A stretch of DNA of 10,277 bases from assembly GCA_038826135.1 (NCBI GenBank), contig JAWBON010000041.1:1-10277 (forward strand). The letters are read 5' to 3'. Position 1 is the first letter of the stretch; each line of letters opens with the position of its first letter. Source of the stretch: Candidatus Odinarchaeota archaeon. GTDB lineage: Archaea > Asgardarchaeota > Odinarchaeia > Odinarchaeales > Odinarchaeaceae. The position numbers were made by a program, and so were the translations under genes. The notes beneath the pieces are model-generated. The model made no database searches. It saw only the letters and a list, made by a program, of their open reading frames with translations, and was not told the origin of the DNA. Positions 119 through 10,041 of the stretch are shown here, piece after piece.

Positions 119-874
119 GTGATTTTTTTGGAGCGCGAGGTTGAGATTAACGAGAACGCTAAGATACCTGAATCCCCTATAATTCTTCTAGGGTTACCGG
201 ATACTGGTCTTGTAGGTGTTATAGCTACTGCTCACATATTAGAGATTAATAAACCGAAGTATTTAGGTTCAATCGACTCTATATATTTCCCTCCAATGAT
301 CGTCATCCATAACGGGGAGATAATGGCTCCTGTTAGAATATACGGTCAAGGCAGCATAGTATCACTTATATCCGAGATCACTTTACCCGTGAACGGTATG
401 GATAAGATTGTAGATGCCATAGTATCCTGGTTGCAGGAGAAAAAACCACGCCTCGTCCTTTTCCTAGGTGGTATACCCGCCCCTAACAGGATGGAGCTTG
501 AAAGATCAACCTGCTACGCTGTGCCTACAAGCTCTGAACTTGTTAAACAAGTAGAAGAGTTGAATATACCCCGGCTGCTAGAGGGTTTAATGGTTGGACC
601 GTACGCTCTTCTGTTAAAAGAGTGTAAAAAGAAGGGGATTCCCTCTATAGCTCTTTTAAGCGAATCATATGCTAATTACCCTGATCCAGGTGCAGCTGCC
701 TCTGTGATAGAAACACTGAATAAAATAATTGATTTAAATGTTGAAATTGAAAGTTTACTGAAGAAAGCTGATGAGATTAGAATAAATATGAGAGATTTAA
801 TGAGACGGACCGCTAAAGAGATGAAGCAAGCTGAAAAATCCAGGGAATATGAGCTACCTCCACTATATATGTAG
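119..874 (+). CDS. PAC2-family proteasome assembly chaperone / PbaB-like proteasome activator
   Basis: Motifs IILLGLPDTGLVGVIAT, YLGSIDSIYFPP, LVLFLGG, MVGPYALLL, YPDPGAAA and a helical C-terminus ending LYM (HbYX). GGTGA at 118-122 could be the RBS for an in-frame TTG at 128-130, which may be the true start. Confidence 0.9.
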   Translation: MIFLEREVEINENAKIPESPIILLGLPDTGLVGVIATAHILEINKPKYLGSIDSIYFPPMIVIHNGEIMAPVRIYGQGSIVSLISEITLPVNGMDKIVDAIVSWLQEKKPRLVLFLGGIPAPNRMELERSTCYAVPTSSELVKQVEELNIPRLLEGLMVGPYALLLKECKKKGIPSIALLSESYANYPDPGAAASVIETLNKIIDLNVEIESLLKKADEIRINMRDLMRRTAKEMKQAEKSREYELPPLYM

Positions 875-876
875 GG

Positions 877-1335
877 GTGTTAGACGTGTCTAATGATGAA
901 TATTATGGTTTAGATGAATACATTGATAAGATTTTACAGAGACTGAGAAGACAGATGGATAGAGCTCTCCCGCTAGCTGATTTATCAATGGAATCCAGCT
1001 GGGATATTGAAGAAGGATGTATGGAGCCCCTCTTCCAGTTACAGGAGAAAGAGAATGAGATTGTTGTAAGCGCTGATCTCCCCTTAGTTAAGAAGGAAAG
1101 CATTAAAATAAAAGCTGATGAGCAGACAGTTGAAATATCGGCTGAGACTGTTAAAGAAATAGCGTTCGATAAATGGTGGGCTTCTCAGCGTAAAAAAGCA
1201 TTCTGTCGTTTCCATAAGAAAATAACTTTACCAACTAAAATAATACCTGAAGAGGCGAAAGCCTGTTTTAAAAACGGTATACTTATATTAACTCTTCCAA
1301 AGAAGAAGCGCGTTTTTGAAATAAAAGTTGAGTAA
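877..1335 (+). CDS. Small heat-shock protein (Hsp20/alpha-crystallin family)
   Basis: Alpha-crystallin core EIVVSADLPLVKKESIKI...FHKKITLPTKIIPEEAKACFKNGILILTLPK and C-terminal I-x-V (IKVE). It starts 2 nt after the PAC2 stop. AGGGGTG at 873-879 may be the RBS for an in-frame GTG at 886. Confidence 0.9.
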   Translation: MLDVSNDEYYGLDEYIDKILQRLRRQMDRALPLADLSMESSWDIEEGCMEPLFQLQEKENEIVVSADLPLVKKESIKIKADEQTVEISAETVKEIAFDKWWASQRKKAFCRFHKKITLPTKIIPEEAKACFKNGILILTLPKKKRVFEIKVE

Positions 1336-1410: not shown

Positions 1411-3270
1411 TTAAAGTTTATCTAAGCCTAATTCCTTGAGTTTTTCCTCTGATGGTATGCCCTTCGGCCAGCCTTTAACTTTGAAGTACTCTTCTCTCAT
1501 CTCTTTCAAAGGCGGTACTAAGCCAGCCGCTCCACCAGCTTTTCTAGCTGTGAAGAATCTCTTCGGTAGCCAGTAGTCTCTCTCCGGGACTAGACCGTGC
1601 TTTATATTGAACATGTTCATTAATGTGACTATTCTCTCACCGACTTTAAGCAGATCCTGTGGGGTCATATTCCACCCTGTGACAGCGTTAGTTAAATTCG
1701 TTATTCTTGTGAAATTATATCCTGAAAACTCGTAGAAGAAGCAGAATACTAGTGAGTTAGCTACAGCCATTCTATCCTGGTATTTCGCAGCTGCAAGACC
1801 CTTCAGTTTAGTGTCGTGTGGATCCATAGGCTTACTTAATTGAGGTCCAGCTTCAGGGAAGGTGACTCCCAACTCTATAGCTTCTGGGAAGCCGTGCAGG
1901 TGGCTCGCACCCTTCATAGAAGTCGCTGTCTCAACAGCCATAGACATGAATGCGCGTGGATCATGTGCTGGTACCACTGCGCCGTTGACGTGAAGCGCCA
2001 GATCAGGGCAGCCTAGTTTTTCACCAGCAGGTCTTACACCTTCACCTAGTAAGGTTGGTATTTTACCTTTTCTATGAGCTATGTCTTCTAAGAGTCTTAG
2101 CATGGCATCCCCGTCACCCCATTTAAGCTCGTAGCCTAGGTCGGCCTTCTTGATATAGCCTTTCTCATAAGCTTCCATCGCAAAAGCGCAGACTCCACCG
2201 AACTCTATGGTGTCGATACTGTACCTGTTACATAACTCGTTCGCTTTGTTTATCGCTAGAAGGTTATCTATCAAGCAGTCTGATCCAATCATTGCCAGTG
2301 TCTCATATTCAGGACCGTAGCTGTCCATAGCGTATTTTTCAGGTGTCTTCATGGTCACTCTTCTATGGCATCCCATTATACAATTTGAACACGCGTCTGG
2401 TTTAGGTTTAAGAACCTTGTTGAATTCACCGCCAGCTGAACCTATTTTCTTAGCGCCCTCAATCCAACGGGACTCTAAGAAGTTTTTAATCGGCAGCAGA
2501 CCGTTTTCCTCTCTAGGTATCACAGCCATAGCCTGGCCCTCTTCACGGTTAGCTTTAGTGAAATCCGCTTTCTTAGCGTCTTCAGTAGCTTCTTTTCTAA
2601 GCTGAGCAAGCTCATCCGGTCTCGCTATTGGGACCTTCTTAGTTCCTCTGAAGGCTAAAGCTTTCAGTTTCTTTGAACCCATGACAGCTCCCATGCCTGT
2701 TCTACCAGCACAGCCGTGCCCGTAGTTGCAGATTAGACCAGCGTATCTTACAAGGTTCTCTGCAGCAGGCCCTATGGGCGCTACTTGTATTTTATCATCT
2801 TTCAACTCTTTTTTTATAGCATCCTCAGTCTGGTAGGCGTCTAGTTTACCCCACATGTGAGAAGCGTCTTTAATCTCAGCTTTACCATCGCTTACAAACA
2901 CATAGACCGGCTTAGCCGACTTACCTTTAACAACTATTGCGTCAAACCCTGTTTTCTTAAATTCCTCAGAGTTATAGCCCCCTCCTAAAGACTCCCCGAA
3001 TATACCTGTTAAAGGAGACTTCGCGCATGCTGAAAAACGTCCACTTCCAAGTATAGCGGAACCACCCTGCCATGGACCTGTTGCGAAAACGAACACATTA
3101 TCCGGTCCGAGTGGATCAGCACCCGCAGGGATCTCCTTATACATTATATAGGCTGCTAACCCTGTTCCGCCCAGAAACTTCTTGTACACATCCTCAGGGA
3201 TATCTCTGGTTTTAATTTTATGGTTTGTAAGATCTACTTCAAGTATCTTTCCCCAATATCCACCAGCCAT
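1411..3270 (-). CDS. aor: Tungsten-containing aldehyde:ferredoxin oxidoreductase (AOR family)
   Basis: 619 aa with GYWGKILEVDL, FLGGTGLA, KSPLTG, AGRTGMGAVMGSKKLKA, a [4Fe-4S] cysteine set C294-x2-C297-x3-C301 plus C510, GPEYET, HDPR and GASH. RBS GGGAGGT lies 6 nt before the ATG. The exact AOR subfamily and substrate are not determinable. Confidence 0.92.
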   Translation of the reverse strand: MAGGYWGKILEVDLTNHKIKTRDIPEDVYKKFLGGTGLAAYIMYKEIPAGADPLGPDNVFVFATGPWQGGSAILGSGRFSACAKSPLTGIFGESLGGGYNSEEFKKTGFDAIVVKGKSAKPVYVFVSDGKAEIKDASHMWGKLDAYQTEDAIKKELKDDKIQVAPIGPAAENLVRYAGLICNYGHGCAGRTGMGAVMGSKKLKALAFRGTKKVPIARPDELAQLRKEATEDAKKADFTKANREEGQAMAVIPREENGLLPIKNFLESRWIEGAKKIGSAGGEFNKVLKPKPDACSNCIMGCHRRVTMKTPEKYAMDSYGPEYETLAMIGSDCLIDNLLAINKANELCNRYSIDTIEFGGVCAFAMEAYEKGYIKKADLGYELKWGDGDAMLRLLEDIAHRKGKIPTLLGEGVRPAGEKLGCPDLALHVNGAVVPAHDPRAFMSMAVETATSMKGASHLHGFPEAIELGVTFPEAGPQLSKPMDPHDTKLKGLAAAKYQDRMAVANSLVFCFFYEFSGYNFTRITNLTNAVTGWNMTPQDLLKVGERIVTLMNMFNIKHGLVPERDYWLPKRFFTARKAGGAAGLVPPLKEMREEYFKVKGWPKGIPSEEKLKELGLDKL

Positions 3271-3323
3271 AGTTTAACCTCCCGCCGATTAATCGAACGG
3301 TAAATATAATTTTATTATTAATT

Positions 3324-3340
3324 ATATATATATGTTTTTG
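3324..3340 (-). promoter_or_regulatory. Putative BRE + TATA promoter of aor
   Basis: Minus strand reads CAAAAAC-ATATATATAT about 55 nt upstream of the aor ATG. The region is very AT-rich, so placement is uncertain. Confidence 0.45.
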
Positions 3341-3415
3341 TAAAAAAATTACTTAAACATACATATATTTAATTTTTTAAACTAATCTCTAAATGATTAA
3401 AATATACATTCCGTG

Positions 3416-3432
3416 TTAAAAACTTTTAAATA
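3416..3432 (+). promoter_or_regulatory. Putative BRE + TATA promoter of the class-III PLP enzyme gene
   Basis: A-rich TTAAAAAC followed by TTTAAATA (3425-3432), about 55 nt before ATG 3486. Confidence 0.5.
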
Positions 3433-3476
3433 ATACTTATCCTAGTAAATAATATTTGCCTAAATAATTTTTAAAG

Positions 3477-4838
3477 GTGAGATTTATGGTGAAAATGACA
3501 ACAGAGCAAGCTATCGAAAAATCTAAGAAATGGTGCCTTCACGGCTGGGGTTTCATACCCATAGCTGTAGAATCTGCTAAAGGAGCTATATTCAAAGACT
3601 TGAATGGAAAGGAATACTTAGATTTCCTATCTCAGACCGCGGGCGTCCTAGGTATAGGTCACACACATCCGAAAATGGTTGCAGCTGTTAAAGAACAGCT
3701 TGAAAAAATACAGCACGTTCTGACAGGGTTCGTTATTCCAAGTCGTGCTGAATTCGGTGAGAAACTCGCCGCTGTAGCTCCACCCCCGCTGACAAACAAT
3801 TGCATGATGTATATTGCATGCGGTGGGTCAGAGGCTAACGAGACTGCGTTAAAAATGGCGATGTTAATAACCGGTAAGAAAGAGGTTATATCACAATATC
3901 ACGCATACCACGGTGGAACACTTGCTTTAATGGGCTTGTTAGCGCAAGCACCGCATAGAAAAGGCTTCCTAAGATACCCTGGTTTCCACAACATACCTGC
4001 TACCCCCTACTGTTACAGATGTTATCAAGGTAAAAAATACCCTGACTGCGATCATGAGTGTGCAAGACAGTTAGAATACCACTTAAAGTGGGGTGTTGAA
4101 GAAGACTCTGTAGCCGCGTTCATACAGGAACCGATAACTGGTAACGGCGGTCACATGGGTCCGAACGACAACAATCATAAGAAGGAACCTGATAAAGTAT
4201 ATCACAAAATAATCAGAGAAACATGTAACAAATACAATGTGCTATATATAAGCGATGAAGTCCAGTGTGGTATGGGTAGAATGGGTAAGAACTGGGGCTG
4301 CATGGTTTACGACATGAAACCGGACATATTCACAACAGCTAAAGCCCTAGGTGGAGGCCTGCCTGTTTCAGCAGCGGTAATCCGCAAAGACCTTGTACCT
4401 GAGAAAATGAAGGAAGCCCAGTGGCATATATTCACTATGGGTGGCAGTCCGATAACAATGGCTGCCGGCATAGCAGCGCTAGACGTTTTAGTTGAAGAGA
4501 GACTGGCTGAAAAAGCTAAGACTCAGGGCGAGAGAATGTACAAGGTTCTGAAAGAATGGGAGAACACTCACAAAATAGTCGGCGAAGTCCGCGGTGAGGG
4601 CTTATTCATCGGAATAGAGCTTGTAAAAGACAAGAAATCTAAGGAGAAAGCTATAGACGCGGCTGGCGCGGTCTTCTCAAAATGCTTAGAGAAAGGTCTA
4701 CTGCTAGGTGTCTCCGCAGTAGGCGGATGGGGTAACGTATTGAAACTAAAGCCTCCTCTAGCAATACCCAACGATCAGGCTGACAAAGGTCTGGCTATAA
4801 TAGAGGAAGCGATCAAAGAAGTCGCGAAGAACATGTAA
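3477..4838 (+). CDS. Class-III PLP-dependent enzyme (aminotransferase-III fold); possibly a phospho-lyase rather than a transaminase
   Basis: Motifs GKEYLDF, GSEANETALKMA, YHAYHGGT, FIQEPITG, ISDEVQCGMGRMG and PDIFTTAKALGGG (PLP lysine K289). The C-terminal NVLKLKPP replaces the usual NVIRxxPP. The likely start is ATG 3486, with RBS AGGTGA at 3475-3480. Confidence 0.9.
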   Translation: MRFMVKMTTEQAIEKSKKWCLHGWGFIPIAVESAKGAIFKDLNGKEYLDFLSQTAGVLGIGHTHPKMVAAVKEQLEKIQHVLTGFVIPSRAEFGEKLAAVAPPPLTNNCMMYIACGGSEANETALKMAMLITGKKEVISQYHAYHGGTLALMGLLAQAPHRKGFLRYPGFHNIPATPYCYRCYQGKKYPDCDHECARQLEYHLKWGVEEDSVAAFIQEPITGNGGHMGPNDNNHKKEPDKVYHKIIRETCNKYNVLYISDEVQCGMGRMGKNWGCMVYDMKPDIFTTAKALGGGLPVSAAVIRKDLVPEKMKEAQWHIFTMGGSPITMAAGIAALDVLVEERLAEKAKTQGERMYKVLKEWENTHKIVGEVRGEGLFIGIELVKDKKSKEKAIDAAGAVFSKCLEKGLLLGVSAVGGWGNVLKLKPPLAIPNDQADKGLAIIEEAIKEVAKNM

Positions 4839-4843
4839 ACAAT

Positions 4844-4859
4844 CCCCTCTATTTTTTTT
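4844..4859 (+). terminator. Oligo-T terminator of the class-III PLP enzyme gene
   Basis: CCCCTCTA-T8, 5 nt after the stop codon. Confidence 0.6.
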
Positions 4860-4974
4860 AAATTTTAATCTATTTTTCAATTTATTTAGAAAAGTAAATA
4901 TTAAAACAAGTTTTCCACTTATCGAGGAGATGTTAACCTAGAGTTTTCTGTAAACTTTTAATAATAAAAATTAT

Positions 4975-4990
4975 AAAAAAATAGAGAGAA
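4975..4990 (-). terminator. Oligo-T terminator of the gldA-like gene
   Basis: Minus strand TTCTCTCTA-T7, 3 nt after the stop codon. Confidence 0.6.
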
Positions 4991-4993
4991 ATT

Positions 4994-6118
4994 TTAATGT
5001 TCGCAACCGCACTTCTCATGGTATTCTGTACCGATAGCATCAGTTGCTAAAATAGCATCTTTAACCAGCTGAGGTGTTATATTCAGCGGCATATTGCCCA
5101 TCGTGTCATGTGGATCGCATGCTTTCTCAGCTGCTTTCATAAGATCGTTTTCACTGACAGCCCCTATACCGAGCTCTTTTAATGTTATCGGTAGACCCAG
5201 CTCATGCACCCAGCTGACGATACTCTCCACCTCTTCAGGAGCTCTGCCTTCAAGTATCAGTTGAGTTATAGTACAGTAAGCTACAAGTTGACCATGCTCC
5301 ACGTGGAGGCCTGGCACGATTGTTAAACCGTTATGTGTAGCATGAGCTGCAGCTAGACCTGAGCTTTCGAATCCGAGGCAGCTTAGTAATTTAACAGATT
5401 CAATTATTTTCTCTACAGCTGGTGTAAGCAACTGTTTTTTAGCATCCTTCGCTGCCTGTACACCGTAAGTCATGAGGTTTTCGAAGCATAAATGTGTTAA
5501 AGCCACAGCGGCTGCGGTTGATCTTCCTCCTGGTATATTTTTAGCATTCGGTTGAGCTGCGCACGCGTCAGCTTCGAACATACAAGCTAAAGCGTCCCCC
5601 ATACCCCATGTTATAAATTGAGGAGGCGCTTTCGCTAATATCTCTGAATCCACTAAAACTAGGTCAGGGTTCTTTGGATGGAATAAGTATTCGACAAACT
5701 GGTGTTTCTCCGTATATACTACTGATAAACCGCTCGCATCAGCGTTAGTCGCGCACTGTGTTGGCACTGTTACAACACTAGCTTTCATCTTAACAGCTAC
5801 CGCTTTAGCTGTATCCGCTGATTTACCGCCGCCGATTCCAATAACTATGTCGGCTTTGGACTCTTTTCCGATAGATACGAGTTTATTTATCGTGTCATGG
5901 GTGCACTCTTTAACAGTTGGGTCTTTGTGAACAACTTCCACACCGTTCTTTTTTAGACTTTCAGTGATTATATCCCCTGTCACTTTCATAGCTGTAGGGC
6001 CGCCGAATATCACGGCTCTCTTACCTAGTAGTTTAACCTGTTCCCCTATCTTATATATTGCTCCACGGCCTTGAACATATCTGCTTGGAGATACGAGTAT
6101 TTTCGGCACTTCGACCAT
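4994..6118 (-). CDS. gldA: Glycerol dehydrogenase-family (GldA-like) metal-dependent alcohol dehydrogenase
   Basis: Motifs SPSRYVQGRGA, GIGGGKSADTAKA, VPT, GMGDAL (D175), ESSGLAAAHATHNGLT (H259) and HG (H275); the metal ligands are spaced as in GldA. RBS GAGGTG lies 7 nt before the ATG. The substrate-site motif deviates, so the symbol denotes family rather than proven function. Confidence 0.8.
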   Translation of the reverse strand: MVEVPKILVSPSRYVQGRGAIYKIGEQVKLLGKRAVIFGGPTAMKVTGDIITESLKKNGVEVVHKDPTVKECTHDTINKLVSIGKESKADIVIGIGGGKSADTAKAVAVKMKASVVTVPTQCATNADASGLSVVYTEKHQFVEYLFHPKNPDLVLVDSEILAKAPPQFITWGMGDALACMFEADACAAQPNAKNIPGGRSTAAAVALTHLCFENLMTYGVQAAKDAKKQLLTPAVEKIIESVKLLSCLGFESSGLAAAHATHNGLTIVPGLHVEHGQLVAYCTITQLILEGRAPEEVESIVSWVHELGLPITLKELGIGAVSENDLMKAAEKACDPHDTMGNMPLNITPQLVKDAILATDAIGTEYHEKCGCEH

Positions 6119-6359: not shown

Positions 6360-8027
6360 ATGGCAACTGAGAAGGAAGTCTTCATTAGGAAGGCCTCAGG
6401 TCTAACTAGGGTTATAAGCGCGTGGGATGCGTTAATATACGCATTCTGCAACCCTGGCATACTATACTGTATGCTATATATAACCTGGGGTCCTTGGGGT
6501 GTCGGTCCAGGTGCTGATATGCCATGGGCGGTAGTAACAGTCTTCATGCTCTTGCCTATTCAAGCACTCTACTGGTTGTTCTCGGTTAGCATGCCCAGAA
6601 GTGGTGGCGAATACTTATATGTCAGTAGGATAATCAGTCCCGCATTCGGTTTATTCGCTTCATGGACCTTAACAATCGTTGGCATGTCTTGGACAGGCCA
6701 ATGCACAACCTGGATGATAAACTACGGTATAGGTGGCATGTTCCTGAACGGGGGTATTCTCGCACGGGATGTAGGCCTTCTAAACATTGGTAACATATTA
6801 GGTGATACAAGTCTTATCCAATATGGTGGTACCCCATATACCGCTGCAATAATCTCAGTAATAGCAACAATATCTCTCATATCGACATTCTATATAATGT
6901 ACCGTGGTGCTAAAGCCTCTATGAGACTAAGCTGGATCTGCTCAGCTATAGCTACAGTGGGTCTTCTATGCTTCGTAGCTATCGCATGGACTTCAGGTGA
7001 AACAGTGTTCGTAAACAATGTGAACACGATCTGGAGTGACCCGACGATTCAATCAAGCGGATACTTCGCATACACTAACTATGCTGCGTATATAACAGAT
7101 GTTATAGCCGCAGGGTACCCAGGTCACCCTGAACTTATAGGTACAATATTCGCTGGAACAGCTTATGTGAACCTTAACACTTTAGGATCCACATATACTA
7201 CAAGCGCTGCTGGAGAGATTAAAGGAGTCTCATTCGCTCAAGGATTAGCTCTACTCGGTTCAATAATAATGTTCATGGGTTACTGGGAGCTCTTCTACGC
7301 TTCAGCCTACGTTGGCTGCGGCTCAGACTTCTGGTGGGGTATAGCTTATGCCGAAAATGGTGGAATAGACTATGCTGCTTTCGGTACAATGGCTAACGGT
7401 ATTACGGTAGCCCCCTACCTGTCAGATAATCCATTCCTAGTATGGATGGTTGCATTCGGCTTCGTTGCAGCCACCTATGGTAGTGTACTGGGAATGTCCT
7501 TCGGACCCGTCAGAAACATGTTCGCATGGTCATTTGACGGTGTTTTACCGAACTGGTGGAACAAAGTTGACAGAAGAGGCTCACCATGGGTATCCGTCAT
7601 GGCTGGTTGTATAATCGCATGGGCGTTCATGATGCTCTACACATGGACTTCACTGCTTTACTTGATTCTATGGACGATAACAGTATGGTTCATCGGCTGG
7701 ATAATCGTAGGCATAGCCGGTATGATATTCCCGTACAGGAGAAAGGACATCTTCGAGAAATCACCCGAACTAGTTAAGAAGAGAGTCGCCGGACTTCCTG
7801 TAGTAACCATACTAGGCGCGTTAACCACAGGCATCAGCGTGTTCACCGTATGGGTTACACTGGCCCCCTCATTCGTATACGGTTGGGGTCTTGATCCTCT
7901 CTCACTGGGTGGTACAGTCCTATTCTTAGTAGTATGCCCGTTCGTGTTATACTACGCTGCCTACTTCTACAGGAAGAGTAAAGGCGTTCCCATGGACCTG
8001 AGGTTTAAGGAGATACCTCCTGACTAA
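6360..8027 (+). CDS. APC-superfamily amino acid/amine permease
   Basis: About 12 hydrophobic segments by eye; N-terminal FIRKASGLTRVISAWDA, SMPRSGGEYLYVSR, AGEIK, RNMFAWSFDGVLP and C-terminal FKEIPPD, typical of archaeal APC permeases. RBS AGGAG at 6346-6350. Confidence 0.9.
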   Translation: MATEKEVFIRKASGLTRVISAWDALIYAFCNPGILYCMLYITWGPWGVGPGADMPWAVVTVFMLLPIQALYWLFSVSMPRSGGEYLYVSRIISPAFGLFASWTLTIVGMSWTGQCTTWMINYGIGGMFLNGGILARDVGLLNIGNILGDTSLIQYGGTPYTAAIISVIATISLISTFYIMYRGAKASMRLSWICSAIATVGLLCFVAIAWTSGETVFVNNVNTIWSDPTIQSSGYFAYTNYAAYITDVIAAGYPGHPELIGTIFAGTAYVNLNTLGSTYTTSAAGEIKGVSFAQGLALLGSIIMFMGYWELFYASAYVGCGSDFWWGIAYAENGGIDYAAFGTMANGITVAPYLSDNPFLVWMVAFGFVAATYGSVLGMSFGPVRNMFAWSFDGVLPNWWNKVDRRGSPWVSVMAGCIIAWAFMMLYTWTSLLYLILWTITVWFIGWIIVGIAGMIFPYRRKDIFEKSPELVKKRVAGLPVVTILGALTTGISVFTVWVTLAPSFVYGWGLDPLSLGGTVLFLVVCPFVLYYAAYFYRKSKGVPMDLRFKEIPPD

Positions 8028-8028
8028 A

Positions 8029-8049
8029 CCCTCTGTTTTTATTTTTTTT
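8029..8049 (+). terminator. Oligo-T terminator of the APC permease
   Basis: CCCTCTG-T5-A-T8, 1 nt after the stop codon. Confidence 0.6.
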
Positions 8050-8141: not shown

Positions 8142-8157
8142 CGAAATACTTAAATAT
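8142..8157 (+). promoter_or_regulatory. Putative BRE + TATA promoter of the phosphoesterase-nucleotidyltransferase pair
   Basis: CGAAATAC followed by TTAAATAT (8150-8157), downstream of the permease terminator. Confidence 0.5.
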
Positions 8158-8171
8158 ACTGTAAAAATAAT

Positions 8172-9164
8172 ATGATGCAAAAAGTGAAGGTTGGTGTGAA
8201 ATTAATGGTAAAAACAAGATTGTTTTTCGCAACAGATGTGCACGGTTCGGAAGTATGTTTTAGAAAATTCCTTAACGCGGGTAAATTCTACGGTGTTAAA
8301 ACATTGATATTAGGCGGTGATATAACTGGGAAGATGATCGTCCCCGTTGTTAAAAAAGAGGGTGGCGTATATGAGGCTAAATACTACGGTACAGTTCATA
8401 AGGCTAAGTCTGAGGATGAGTTAAATAAGCTTAAAAGACTCATTCGCGACGGTGGCTTCTACCCGTTTATAACGACAGAGGACGAGATGAAGGAGCTTGC
8501 TAGTAAAAACGTTAACGTCGACGAAATCTTCAAAGACCTAGTTCTAGACACACTTAGAGGATGGGTTAAATTAGCTGAGGAGAGGTTGAAGCCTGAAGGT
8601 ATAAAACTATACATGACAGGCGGCAACGATGACATAGCTGAAATATCAGATATTTTAAGAAGCTCCGATTATATCATAGATCCTGAGGGAACTGTTGTTA
8701 ACATTGACGGTGAACATGAGATGGTAAGCACCGGGTATTCGAATATAACACCTTGGAAATGTCCGAGAGATATAGGTGACGATGAACTTTGGAAAATAAT
8801 TGAGAAAATGCTTAAAGAAGTTAAAGATATGAAGAAAGCGATATTCAACTTTCACGTTCCACCCTACGATGTCCCACCACTCGACTCAGCCCCAGAACTT
8901 GATGAAACCCTTAAACCAATAATGGAAGGAGGCTCAGGGTTAAAGATGATACCTGTGGGTAGTAAAGCTGTTAGAAGAGCTATCGACGAATATCAGCCGC
9001 TTCTAGGTTTACACGGCCATATACATGAAGGCAAAGGCGCTATAACAGTTGGGCGGACACTATGCGTTAACCCTGGCAGTGAGTATGGTGAAGGTATATT
9101 AAGAGGTGTGCTAGTAACAATTGATAAAGATCAGGTAAAAGAATACTTGTTCACGTCTGGTTAA
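8172..9164 (+). CDS. Calcineurin-like metallophosphoesterase (Icc-related)
   Basis: All five motifs are present: TDVHG, GGDITG, GGNDD, FHVPP and GHIHE, followed by NPGSEY. The likely start is ATG 8205 (RBS GGTG at 8193-8196), since the TATA box at 8150-8157 would place transcription start downstream of ATG 8172. Confidence 0.9.
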   Translation: MMQKVKVGVKLMVKTRLFFATDVHGSEVCFRKFLNAGKFYGVKTLILGGDITGKMIVPVVKKEGGVYEAKYYGTVHKAKSEDELNKLKRLIRDGGFYPFITTEDEMKELASKNVNVDEIFKDLVLDTLRGWVKLAEERLKPEGIKLYMTGGNDDIAEISDILRSSDYIIDPEGTVVNIDGEHEMVSTGYSNITPWKCPRDIGDDELWKIIEKMLKEVKDMKKAIFNFHVPPYDVPPLDSAPELDETLKPIMEGGSGLKMIPVGSKAVRRAIDEYQPLLGLHGHIHEGKGAITVGRTLCVNPGSEYGEGILRGVLVTIDKDQVKEYLFTSG

Positions 9165-9189
9165 ATCTTAAAAATAAAATTAACGGAGT

Positions 9190-10020
9190 GTGACCTATAT
9201 GTCATCTGACGAAGCGATTTTAGGTGAGGCTTTGAGATTAATCGATGCAGCTGAGAAAGAGGGAATAATACTGAGAATAATCGGAGCTGCAGCGGTTAGA
9301 CTGAAATGCGTTGACTTCAGAGAGCTTCACAAATCATTCAGGCAGTTAACTGACGTAGATTATATGTCTTATTGGAAATATGAGAGAAAGGTTGACGAAT
9401 TCCTTGAAAAACAGGGATATGCACCTTTACGTTCAGCTGTAACACCGGGTCTATTCGTAGGTAGACGCGTTTACAATGATAAAACCGGTCAGAACAGAGC
9501 GCATATAGACGTATTCTTCGACGAATTAGATATGTGCCATAAAGTCGACTTTCGTGGAAGGCTTGAAATAGATAAGCCTACAATATCAGTAACAGACCTG
9601 GTTTTAGAGAAAATGCAGATTGTTGAAATAAATGAGAAAGACATAAAAGATCTTTGCATAATATTCGCTCAGTTCCCGCTCTCCGAAAAGGATGAGCCGA
9701 ACAGTATAAACAAGAAGTATATCGCAAAAATACTAGCTAAGGAATGGGGTTTCTGGTATACTTTAACAACTAATCTGGATAAAGTTAGAAAATTCATAGA
9801 AAAATACACTCAGCAGGGAATTTTCAACGAACAGCATAAGGCGACAGTTCTGCAGAGAACCCAGGAATTGCGTGAAGCAATAGATAAGGAAGGTAAGAGC
9901 TTCGGTTGGAAGATGAGAGCTAAAGTTGGAACAAAGAAGATCTGGTATAATCCAGTCGGCGAGGTTGAGAGGGCGCCTCACTTAGAGGAATATAAGCCGA
10001 AAGAATATCGGCAAGATTAA
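9190..10020 (+). CDS. Uncharacterised protein with Pol-beta-superfamily nucleotidyltransferase-like motifs
   Basis: hhGxxAV (IIGAAAV, G32), D-x-D (TDVD, D55/D57), third acidic strand (HIDVF, D107) and K141...KDxxD (K150-D151-x-x-D154). The likely start is ATG 9199, with RBS GGAGTG at 9185-9190. The reading frame is solid; the fold call is by motif recognition only. Confidence 0.65.
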   Translation: MTYMSSDEAILGEALRLIDAAEKEGIILRIIGAAAVRLKCVDFRELHKSFRQLTDVDYMSYWKYERKVDEFLEKQGYAPLRSAVTPGLFVGRRVYNDKTGQNRAHIDVFFDELDMCHKVDFRGRLEIDKPTISVTDLVLEKMQIVEINEKDIKDLCIIFAQFPLSEKDEPNSINKKYIAKILAKEWGFWYTLTTNLDKVRKFIEKYTQQGIFNEQHKATVLQRTQELREAIDKEGKSFGWKMRAKVGTKKIWYNPVGEVERAPHLEEYKPKEYRQD

Positions 10021-10021
10021 A

Positions 10022-10041
10022 CCCTCTTTTTTATCATTTTT
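10022..10041 (+). terminator. Oligo-T terminator of the phosphoesterase-nucleotidyltransferase unit
   Basis: CCCTCTTTTTT-ATCA-TTTTT, 1 nt after the stop codon. Confidence 0.6.

Follow-up and report, generated by a model that had tools for sequence, protein, structure and literature searches.

The described systems that lie closest to the genes discussed here are built around nucleotidyltransferases (NTases) of the Pol-beta fold. AbiEii/MenT proteins (DUF1814, PF08843), including MenT1, MenT3/TglT, and MenT4 of M. tuberculosis, are encoded beside an antitoxin, which is either an AbiEi-type winged helix-turn-helix protein or MenA. The resistance proteins ANT(2″)-Ia (AadB) and LnuA nucleotidylate hydroxyl groups of amine-bearing small molecules. 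In GlnD and in RelA/SpoT, an NTase-fold transferase is joined to a metal-dependent phosphohydrolase. For the metallophosphoesterase (MPE) considered below, the nearest solved folds are aq_1956 (2yvt) and TT1561 (1uf3), which belong with PF14582 (Metallophos_3) and COG2129; both are structural-genomics proteins whose entry titles give no function. Here we describe a stretch of DNA from Candidatus Odinarchaeota archaeon, hereafter called the window, which is an entire contig (JAWBON010000041.1, or C41; 10,277 bases) of a 1.26-Mb genome and whose proteins have their nearest named relatives in metagenome-assembled genomes of Odinarchaeia. It encodes an MPE and a nucleotidyltransferase (NT) that are the soluble members of an obligate three-part module, the third member being a dedicated family of APC permeases. 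These components are new families inside well-known superfamilies, and our literature searches found no published description of a permease/MPE/NT module. The trio probably controls or assists the uptake of small nitrogen compounds. Its parts in the window, all on the + strand, are as follows.

6360-8027 (+): APC-superfamily permease of 555 aa, matched by Pfam AA_permease_2; the membrane member of the trio
7983-8024 (+): conserved, putatively cytosolic C-terminal tail of the permease, GVPMDLRFKEIPPD-COOH, recognized by comparing permeases
8036-8049 (+): oligo-T tract (T5, T8) resembling an archaeal terminator, directly 3′ of the permease stop codon, read from the sequence
8150-8157 (+): TATA-box-like element TTAAATAT, 5′ of the MPE gene, read from the sequence
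8205-9164 (+; open reading frame (ORF) from ATG 8172): MPE of 319 aa, COG2129/aq_1956-like
9184-9192 (+): Shine-Dalgarno-like GGAGTGTGA ahead of the NT start, read from the sequence
9199-10020 (+; ORF from GTG 9190): Pol-beta-fold NT of 273 aa
9352-9360 (+): codons of the NT catalytic residues D55 and D57
10027-10041 (+): oligo-T tract (T6, T5), terminator-like, directly 3′ of the NT stop codon, read from the sequence

The first-pass annotation of the window had suggested that a permease/phosphoesterase/NT trio recurs in other prokaryotes without a described function, and had proposed tabulating the neighbors of NT homologs. That tabulation bears the suggestion out. We surveyed 81 NT loci, comprising the window and 80 loci from species-representative genomes of Asgard archaea, Bathyarchaeia, Nitrososphaeria, Thermococci, Chloroflexota, Actinomycetota, Alphaproteobacteria, Planctomycetota, and Caldisericota. 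Within the fetched flanks, MPE is present at 70/81 loci and the permease family at 61/81, and many of the missing partners coincide with contig ends. A reciprocal survey started from MPE and used metagenome-contig loci with at least 3 kb on either side (n = 23); NT is found at 20/23, the permease at 21/23, and both at 19/23. Moreover, profile searches of 301 Asgard genomes detect NT in 109, MPE in 106, and the permease in 102, and the three proteins share their distribution at the family level. All three are absent from Asgard families f4 (0/29), f9 (0/68), f14 (0/11), and f27 (0/11), while f6 yields 55 NT, 53 MPE, and 50 permease matches among 76 genomes and f21 yields 14, 14, and 13 among 21. 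The few genomes with a one-sided result are uninformative because many of these genomes are incomplete. By these three independent tests the trio is real.

Gene order and orientation vary among loci, the commonest arrangement being that of the window (permease, MPE, NT; 23/81), and so the linkage is functional and not merely the trace of one conserved operon. Many genomes also carry several complete paralogous trios, as in G025, where there are seven NT and seven MPE matches. Furthermore, MPE and NT are fused into single proteins of 572-581 aa in 13 clusters, one of which is represented by L013 (499-2244). The shared loci, the matching Asgard distributions, and these fusions substantiate the earlier proposal that the two genes are functionally linked. 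Pairwise identities among the three proteins are correlated (r = 0.57-0.77), a relationship that is inseparable from shared ancestry and was not used as evidence for co-evolution. A prediction of the MPE-NT complex returned a score of 0.06 (mark 0.32) and was weighed neither way.

The arrangement in the window agrees with the two-gene layout described earlier, as seen in the ORFs, the TATA-like element, the flanking oligo-T tracts, the permease directly upstream, and a sequence scan that found no run of five or more T residues on the + strand between 8228 and 10026. The MPE gene likely starts at ATG 8205, because homologs and the database gene call open at M12, and the position of the TATA-like box about 50 nt 5′ of this codon also favors it. 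Similarly, ATG 9199 is the likely start of NT, because a 93%-identical relative and the ESM Atlas record open there. The spacing between the two genes is therefore 25 nt by ORF and 34 nt by likely start. These features suggest that MPE and NT form a bicistronic unit under a promoter of its own, separated from the permease gene by a terminator-like tract.

Both soluble proteins are real, active-looking enzymes, and their catalytic residues are invariant or nearly so. More than 7,999 MPE relatives were scored, and in an alignment of 32 of them all five motifs are conserved in this way: D11-x-H13, G38-D39, G140-N141-D142-D143, H217, and G271-H272-x-H274. The protein thus carries the metal motifs of the calcineurin-like metallophosphoesterase superfamily (DxH, GD, GNH[DE], H, and GHxH), with motif III reading GNDD, in which D replaces the H of the canonical GNH[DE]. 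Pfam PF00149 scores it at 18 bits, below the cutoff of 21.5. The AlphaFold2 (AF2) model has a mean predicted local distance difference test (pLDDT) value of 93, and its best solved matches in Foldseek are 2yvt (E 3.1e-11) and 1uf3 (E 2.5e-8), with template modeling scores by target of 0.70-0.71. Compared with aq_1956 and TT1561, MPE is about 60-90 aa longer, has an insertion of some 90 residues (about 44-135) separating motifs II and III, has GNDD in place of GNH[DE], and is only 13-17% identical. A shape search of the ESM Atlas for MPE fusions found none outside the MPE family. In several Asgard copies of MPE, a match that is full-length in other respects is interrupted by one in-frame stop codon (TAG, TAA, or TGA); these copies lie at G250:C2:164358-165281, G169:C91:1684-2607, G256:C25:2516-3439, G268:C112:6859-7782, and G154:C3:556390-557325.

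NT has the motifs of the Pol-beta-like nucleotidyltransferase superfamily and its alpha-beta-alpha-beta-alpha-beta fold. Across an alignment of 37 relatives, G32, D55-x-D57 (D55-V-D57 in the window protein), and D107 are invariant, and the G motif reads GA, not GG or GS. Also invariant is a helix bearing K141..K150-D151..D154, which is AbiEii-like. The AF2 model (pLDDT 91) comprises a Pol-beta NTase core and a helical C-terminal domain, and its top solved matches are all NTases. By VIA-align, these are ANT(2″)-Ia (Z 11.7), MenT1 (Z 11.6), the fungal NTase-like protein 5uvd (Z 11.4), LnuA (Z 9.9), JHP933 (Z 9.8), MenT3 (Z 9.7), and MenT4 (Z 8.9), with Rel/SpoT synthetase domains matching at Z 7.5-8.4. 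Sequence searches of MPE and NT against solved structures returned nothing usable, and NCBIfam holds no family for either protein.

The NT family is large, with 889 clusters at 50% identity (E<=1e-30, full HMMER scan), and the window NT matched no Pfam family. Among its 37 relatives, 23 match PF14907 (NTP_transf_5) weakly (best E 1.1e-6), and P0318 scores 19.7 bits against that family's gathering cutoff of 31.2. ESM Atlas clusters resembling NT carry PF14907 on 19-46% of their members. The PF14907 family is itself uncharacterized, such that membership would explain nothing of NT function, and our literature search for it turned up only an unrelated phosphonate paper. Because the window NT has no Pfam match and its relatives resemble PF14907 only weakly, NT is a distinct family within the ANT/AbiEii/NTP_transf_5 clan. 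By shape, the NT fold is joined in the ESM Atlas to Fic domains (677-aa proteins, Actinomycetota) and to phosphoribosyltransferase (PRTase) domains (576 aa, Archaea). One rare cluster, P0339 (396 aa), has a MarR-type winged helix N-terminal to NT, and P0386 (426 aa) is extended at its N-terminus by about 170 unassigned residues with a proline-rich linker. These forms hint that the clan at large may have roles in regulation or related to nucleotides, and they do not settle the function of NT here.

The resemblance to AbiEii/MenT proteins is considerable. NT shares with them the Pol-beta core with G[GSA], DxD, and a third Asp, the K..KD..D helix, the helical C-terminal domain, and a size of about 270 aa. 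One might imagine that NT modifies tRNA or another RNA by adding nucleotides, thereby slowing growth when the nutrient runs short, and that MPE trims them away. The full-length likeness to MenT1, MenT3, and MenT4 is consistent with this, as are the AbiEii-like helix and the isoelectric point of NT (8.2), and MPEs include nucleases, with Mre11/SbcD among the fold matches of the window MPE. However, such a function leaves the obligate tie to one permease family and its conserved tail unexplained. Moreover, the window NT has no match to PF08843, and only 3/37 relatives match it, weakly (best E 0.019). We consider an RNA target quite improbable.

A related idea, raised in the first-pass annotation, is that NT is a toxin of a toxin-antitoxin or abortive-infection pair whose product is detoxified by MPE. 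The fold kinship with AbiEii/MenT toxins and the shape-related NT domains fused to Fic or PRTase domains speak for it. In contrast to AbiEii/MenT, however, NT has as partners MPE and a permease, no AbiEi- or MenA-type antitoxin lies adjacent in the window or at most loci, and the context is metabolic with a vertical-looking distribution. Nor do the genes form the autonomous, patchy, mobile two-gene unit of a type II toxin-antitoxin system, given their strict co-inheritance with the permease, the distribution that all three families share in Asgard archaea, and the 13 clusters in which the supposed toxin and antitoxin are one polypeptide. Sampling of the window's genus and of its order, with three genomes each, also found the trio in every one of these small genomes (1.3-2.0 Mb), and identity across phyla is high (41-44%). 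The proposal is weak and fits the data poorly, and we regard it as very improbable indeed.

Fusions of a synthetase with a hydrolase are typical of signaling nucleotides, as in RelA/SpoT and GGDEF-EAL proteins. In view of the MPE-NT fusions, it could be speculated that NT makes a cyclic or linear signaling nucleotide, that MPE degrades it, and that the permease acts as sensor or effector. Relatives of MPE are labeled "Icc-related predicted phosphoesterase" in several sources, and the Rel/SpoT synthetase folds are among the NT matches. Against this, NT is nearer to the small ANT/MenT/AbiEii group than to synthetases of the cGAS/OAS or Rel type, and no receptor domain was seen in the permease or in a constant neighbor. 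A dedicated enzyme pair beside each permease would also be unusual for a diffusible signal. We judge a second-messenger role to be improbable.

The permease belongs to the APC superfamily, as shown by its match to PF13520 (AA_permease_2; E 9.2e-12, 45 bits, cutoff 27) and by the signature P-x-x-G-G-x-Y, conserved as M78-P-R-S-G-G-x-Y85; sequence searches found no relative among solved structures. A conserved feature of this family is its C-terminus. The pattern [FYW]xx[IVLM][PS][PIVTY]x-COOH ends 76/79 trio permeases, and the three exceptions are truncated or broken in appearance. Similarly, 108/113 full-length permeases end in this manner, the other five closing with IP, IPV, or PPE/V. Nearly all trio permeases, whether from bacteria or archaea, share the consensus G(I/V)D..L.FKEIPP(E/D/A/V)-COOH, in which G542, P553, and P554 are nearly invariant and the aromatic position is mostly F, with Y in some proteins. 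The tail is suggested to be cytosolic because a basic cluster follows the last hydrophobic segment, and it represents a candidate docking site for the MPE-NT pair. Outside the tail the permeases have diverged strongly, with a mean identity of 0.25, compared with 0.41 for NT and 0.44 for MPE.

In the genome from which the window derives, three permeases have this tail, whereas an MPE of this family and an intact NT occur only once each. Two of the tails read DLRFKEIPPD and the third DLRFKDIPPD; the tail is missing from an ordinary APC permease on C6. The complete genome of a member of the same genus (G001) likewise has three permeases and one MPE, with two NT matches. The tail-bearing permeases of the source genome are listed here.

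C41 (the window), 6360-8027 (+)
C17, 18688-20376 (+), equivalent to L161 6689-8377
C79, 2998-4593 (-), equivalent to L162

The C17 permease gene has as neighbors genes for an AstE/AspA-like deacylase, a protein resembling zinc-dependent alcohol dehydrogenases (ADH_N only), and DUF998, and that on C79 neighbors a short-chain dehydrogenase gene; neither has MPE or NT nearby. A second NT paralog lies at a contig end (C16:23623-24425, +; L163 5624-6425), and no MPE of this family was found with it. This copy is split over two overlapping frames (profile positions 10-86 and 89-251) and so is either a frameshifted pseudogene or the product of misassembly.

Only the permease accompanies the pair consistently, which suggests that the role of MPE and NT is tied to the transport step and not to a particular catabolic route. 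The same inference follows from the divergence of the permease body in the face of a conserved pair and tail, and from the presence of one pair per three permeases. Perhaps NT moves a nucleotide monophosphate (NMP) onto a hydroxyl group and MPE cleaves the resulting phosphodiester, in which case MPE would replace the HD domain as the removing enzyme. The two would then constitute a write/erase cycle at the transport step and not in downstream catabolism. Such a pair would most likely switch or tune uptake by the permease, and it may recognize the permease through the invariant cytosolic tail. We tentatively favor a reversible nucleotidylation cycle of this type, acting at the transporter and perhaps docked on its tail, as the leading reading, although we would stop short of calling it probable. 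A more specific version, wherein the tail of these cross-domain APC permeases recruits an MPE-NT complex that controls or energetically drives uptake by reversible nucleotidylation, is doubtful at present.

Among the alternatives offered in the first-pass annotation, reversible NMPylation with a logic like that of GlnD/GlnE seems the most plausible, and the tail adds a candidate docking site. The parallel lies in the pairing of an NTase-fold transferase with a metal-dependent phosphohydrolase and in the genetic tie to a nitrogen-compound transporter, as with amtB-glnK. However, the pair has no PII part, domain searches found no HD or ACT domain in MPE or NT, and the putative remover is a calcineurin-like MPE. 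The likeness is thus one of logic only, with homology limited to the NTase fold.

Several considerations weigh against a cycle at the transporter. Whatever goes beyond co-inheritance, fusion, and motif conservation is inferred, and this analysis identified no nucleotidylation target of the pair. No invariant Ser, Thr, or Tyr that could serve as a modification site was found in the tail, and so the tail is at most a docking site. The closest folds include ANT(2″)-Ia, LnuA, and MenT, such that the fold alone does not favor a protein target. No sensor domain is obvious in the MPE-NT pair. Finally, paralogous trios within one genome, as in G025, fit substrate-specific enzymes as well as they fit dedicated regulators.

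This last point bears on the most serious competitor, in which NT O-nucleotidylates an imported amine or amino alcohol, much as ANT/Lnu enzymes treat amino sugars, and MPE cleaves the phosphodiester. The outcome could be a phosphorylated product, with the pair substituting for a kinase, or an ATP-driven trap-and-release process that makes uptake irreversible. ANT(2″)-Ia and LnuA are best or near-best fold matches of NT (Foldseek E 3.4e-4), although they are shorter (160-177 aa), lack the C-terminal helical domain, are only 13-17% identical to NT, and have neither MPE nor permease as a partner. The presence of multiple trios in one genome suggests that the sets are substrate-specific, fusion of the kind seen for MPE and NT is common among enzymes that act in succession, and NT and permease identities co-vary (r = 0.69), though shared ancestry could explain this. 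Furthermore, the surroundings of the trio are catabolic and amine-centered. The genes upstream of the trio in the window are these.

119-874 (+): PAC2 protein (ORF and Pfam)
877-1335 (+): HSP20 protein (ORF and Pfam)
1411-3270 (-): aldehyde:ferredoxin oxidoreductase (AFOR; ORF and Pfam)
3477-4838 (+): class-III aminotransferase (ORF and Pfam)
4994-6118 (-): iron-dependent alcohol/glycerol dehydrogenase (Fe-ADH; ORF and Pfam)

The AFOR, aminotransferase, and glycerol-dehydrogenase-like Fe-ADH genes (1411-6118) belong to families that also flank the trio in L001 and L010, and together they suggest a route by which an imported amine is converted to an aldehyde and then to an acid or alcohol. Across the survey the flanking catabolic genes differ by lineage and none is constant. 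One recurring set comprises an MttB-family methyltransferase, a corrinoid protein, and URO-D. At two Bathyarchaeia loci (L032 and L048), SnoaL-like, corrinoid (B12-binding), and MttB genes lie between MPE and NT on the same strand, which links the module, in these organisms, to the use of methylated amines. In Alphaproteobacteria the set consists of a glutamine-synthetase-like ligase, AllG/DUF1116, and a BetI-type TetR regulator, and in Chloroflexota of FGGY kinases, HAD, DAO, and GntR proteins. Elsewhere there are GlmM/GlmU-like genes, or genes for adenine deaminase and for D-serine-dehydratase-like and luciferase-like enzymes. The theme of these contexts is the breakdown of small nitrogen compounds.

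The same surroundings speak against enzymatic processing of the imported molecule, since with no downstream enzyme constant across loci there is no common product that is consumed. The first-pass annotation had envisaged a two-step, kinase-free activation of an amino alcohol that would feed a putative phospho-lyase encoded in the window. However, the best matches of the class-III aminotransferase are racemases and transaminases of the Pyrococcus type (233 bits), with ethanolamine-phosphate phospho-lyase in twelfth place (186 bits). The protein is thus not specifically phospho-lyase-like, and its family occurs near only 6/81 trios; as a general explanation, this version is weak and is not supported. 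In addition, the linked MttB-type methyltransferases for quaternary amines may act on substrates that have no hydroxyl group. Three permeases share one enzyme pair in the source genome, and NT and MPE are conserved far above the level of the permeases. On balance, processing of the small molecule itself is possible but unlikely, and a cycle acting at the transporter is preferred.

The trio is widespread, as judged from the 889 NT clusters and its occurrence in about a third of the sampled Asgard genomes, and it adjoins genes that degrade methylated amines, amino alcohols, and other small nitrogen compounds. New here are the MPE-NT fusions, the linkage counts made in both directions, the joint profile of the three families across Asgard genomes, the permease tail, and the ratio of three permeases to one pair. 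If the pair indeed controls or drives uptake, then nucleotide chemistry would be coupled to membrane transport in a new way, and if the tail recruits the pair for this purpose, Asgard archaea, Bathyarchaeia, Chloroflexota, Alphaproteobacteria, and others would share a new mode of transporter control. A role in uptake would also affect how the nitrogen and methylamine cycling carried out by soil bacteria and uncultured archaea is annotated. The conserved tail, as a peptide, and the natural MPE-NT fusions, as single-chain enzymes, are concrete reagents.

Some further features of the surveyed loci deserve mention. Three apparent gene families (f8, f28, and f39) in high-GC alphaproteobacterial loci are probably shadow ORFs that arose from crude ORF picking and were disregarded. 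The window lacks a possible fourth member that recurs in some lineages, which is a small protein, assigned to no family, with two predicted membrane helices flanked by soluble parts. It occurs as a protein of 226-235 aa, or as a pair of 141-169 aa that some loci encode as one chain of about 300 aa (141-302 aa for these forms). Examples are given below.

L023, 6253-6951
L053, 4362-5042
L042, 4408-5088
L070, 8842-9519
L061, 4023-4925
L076, 52-960
L043, 2922-3866

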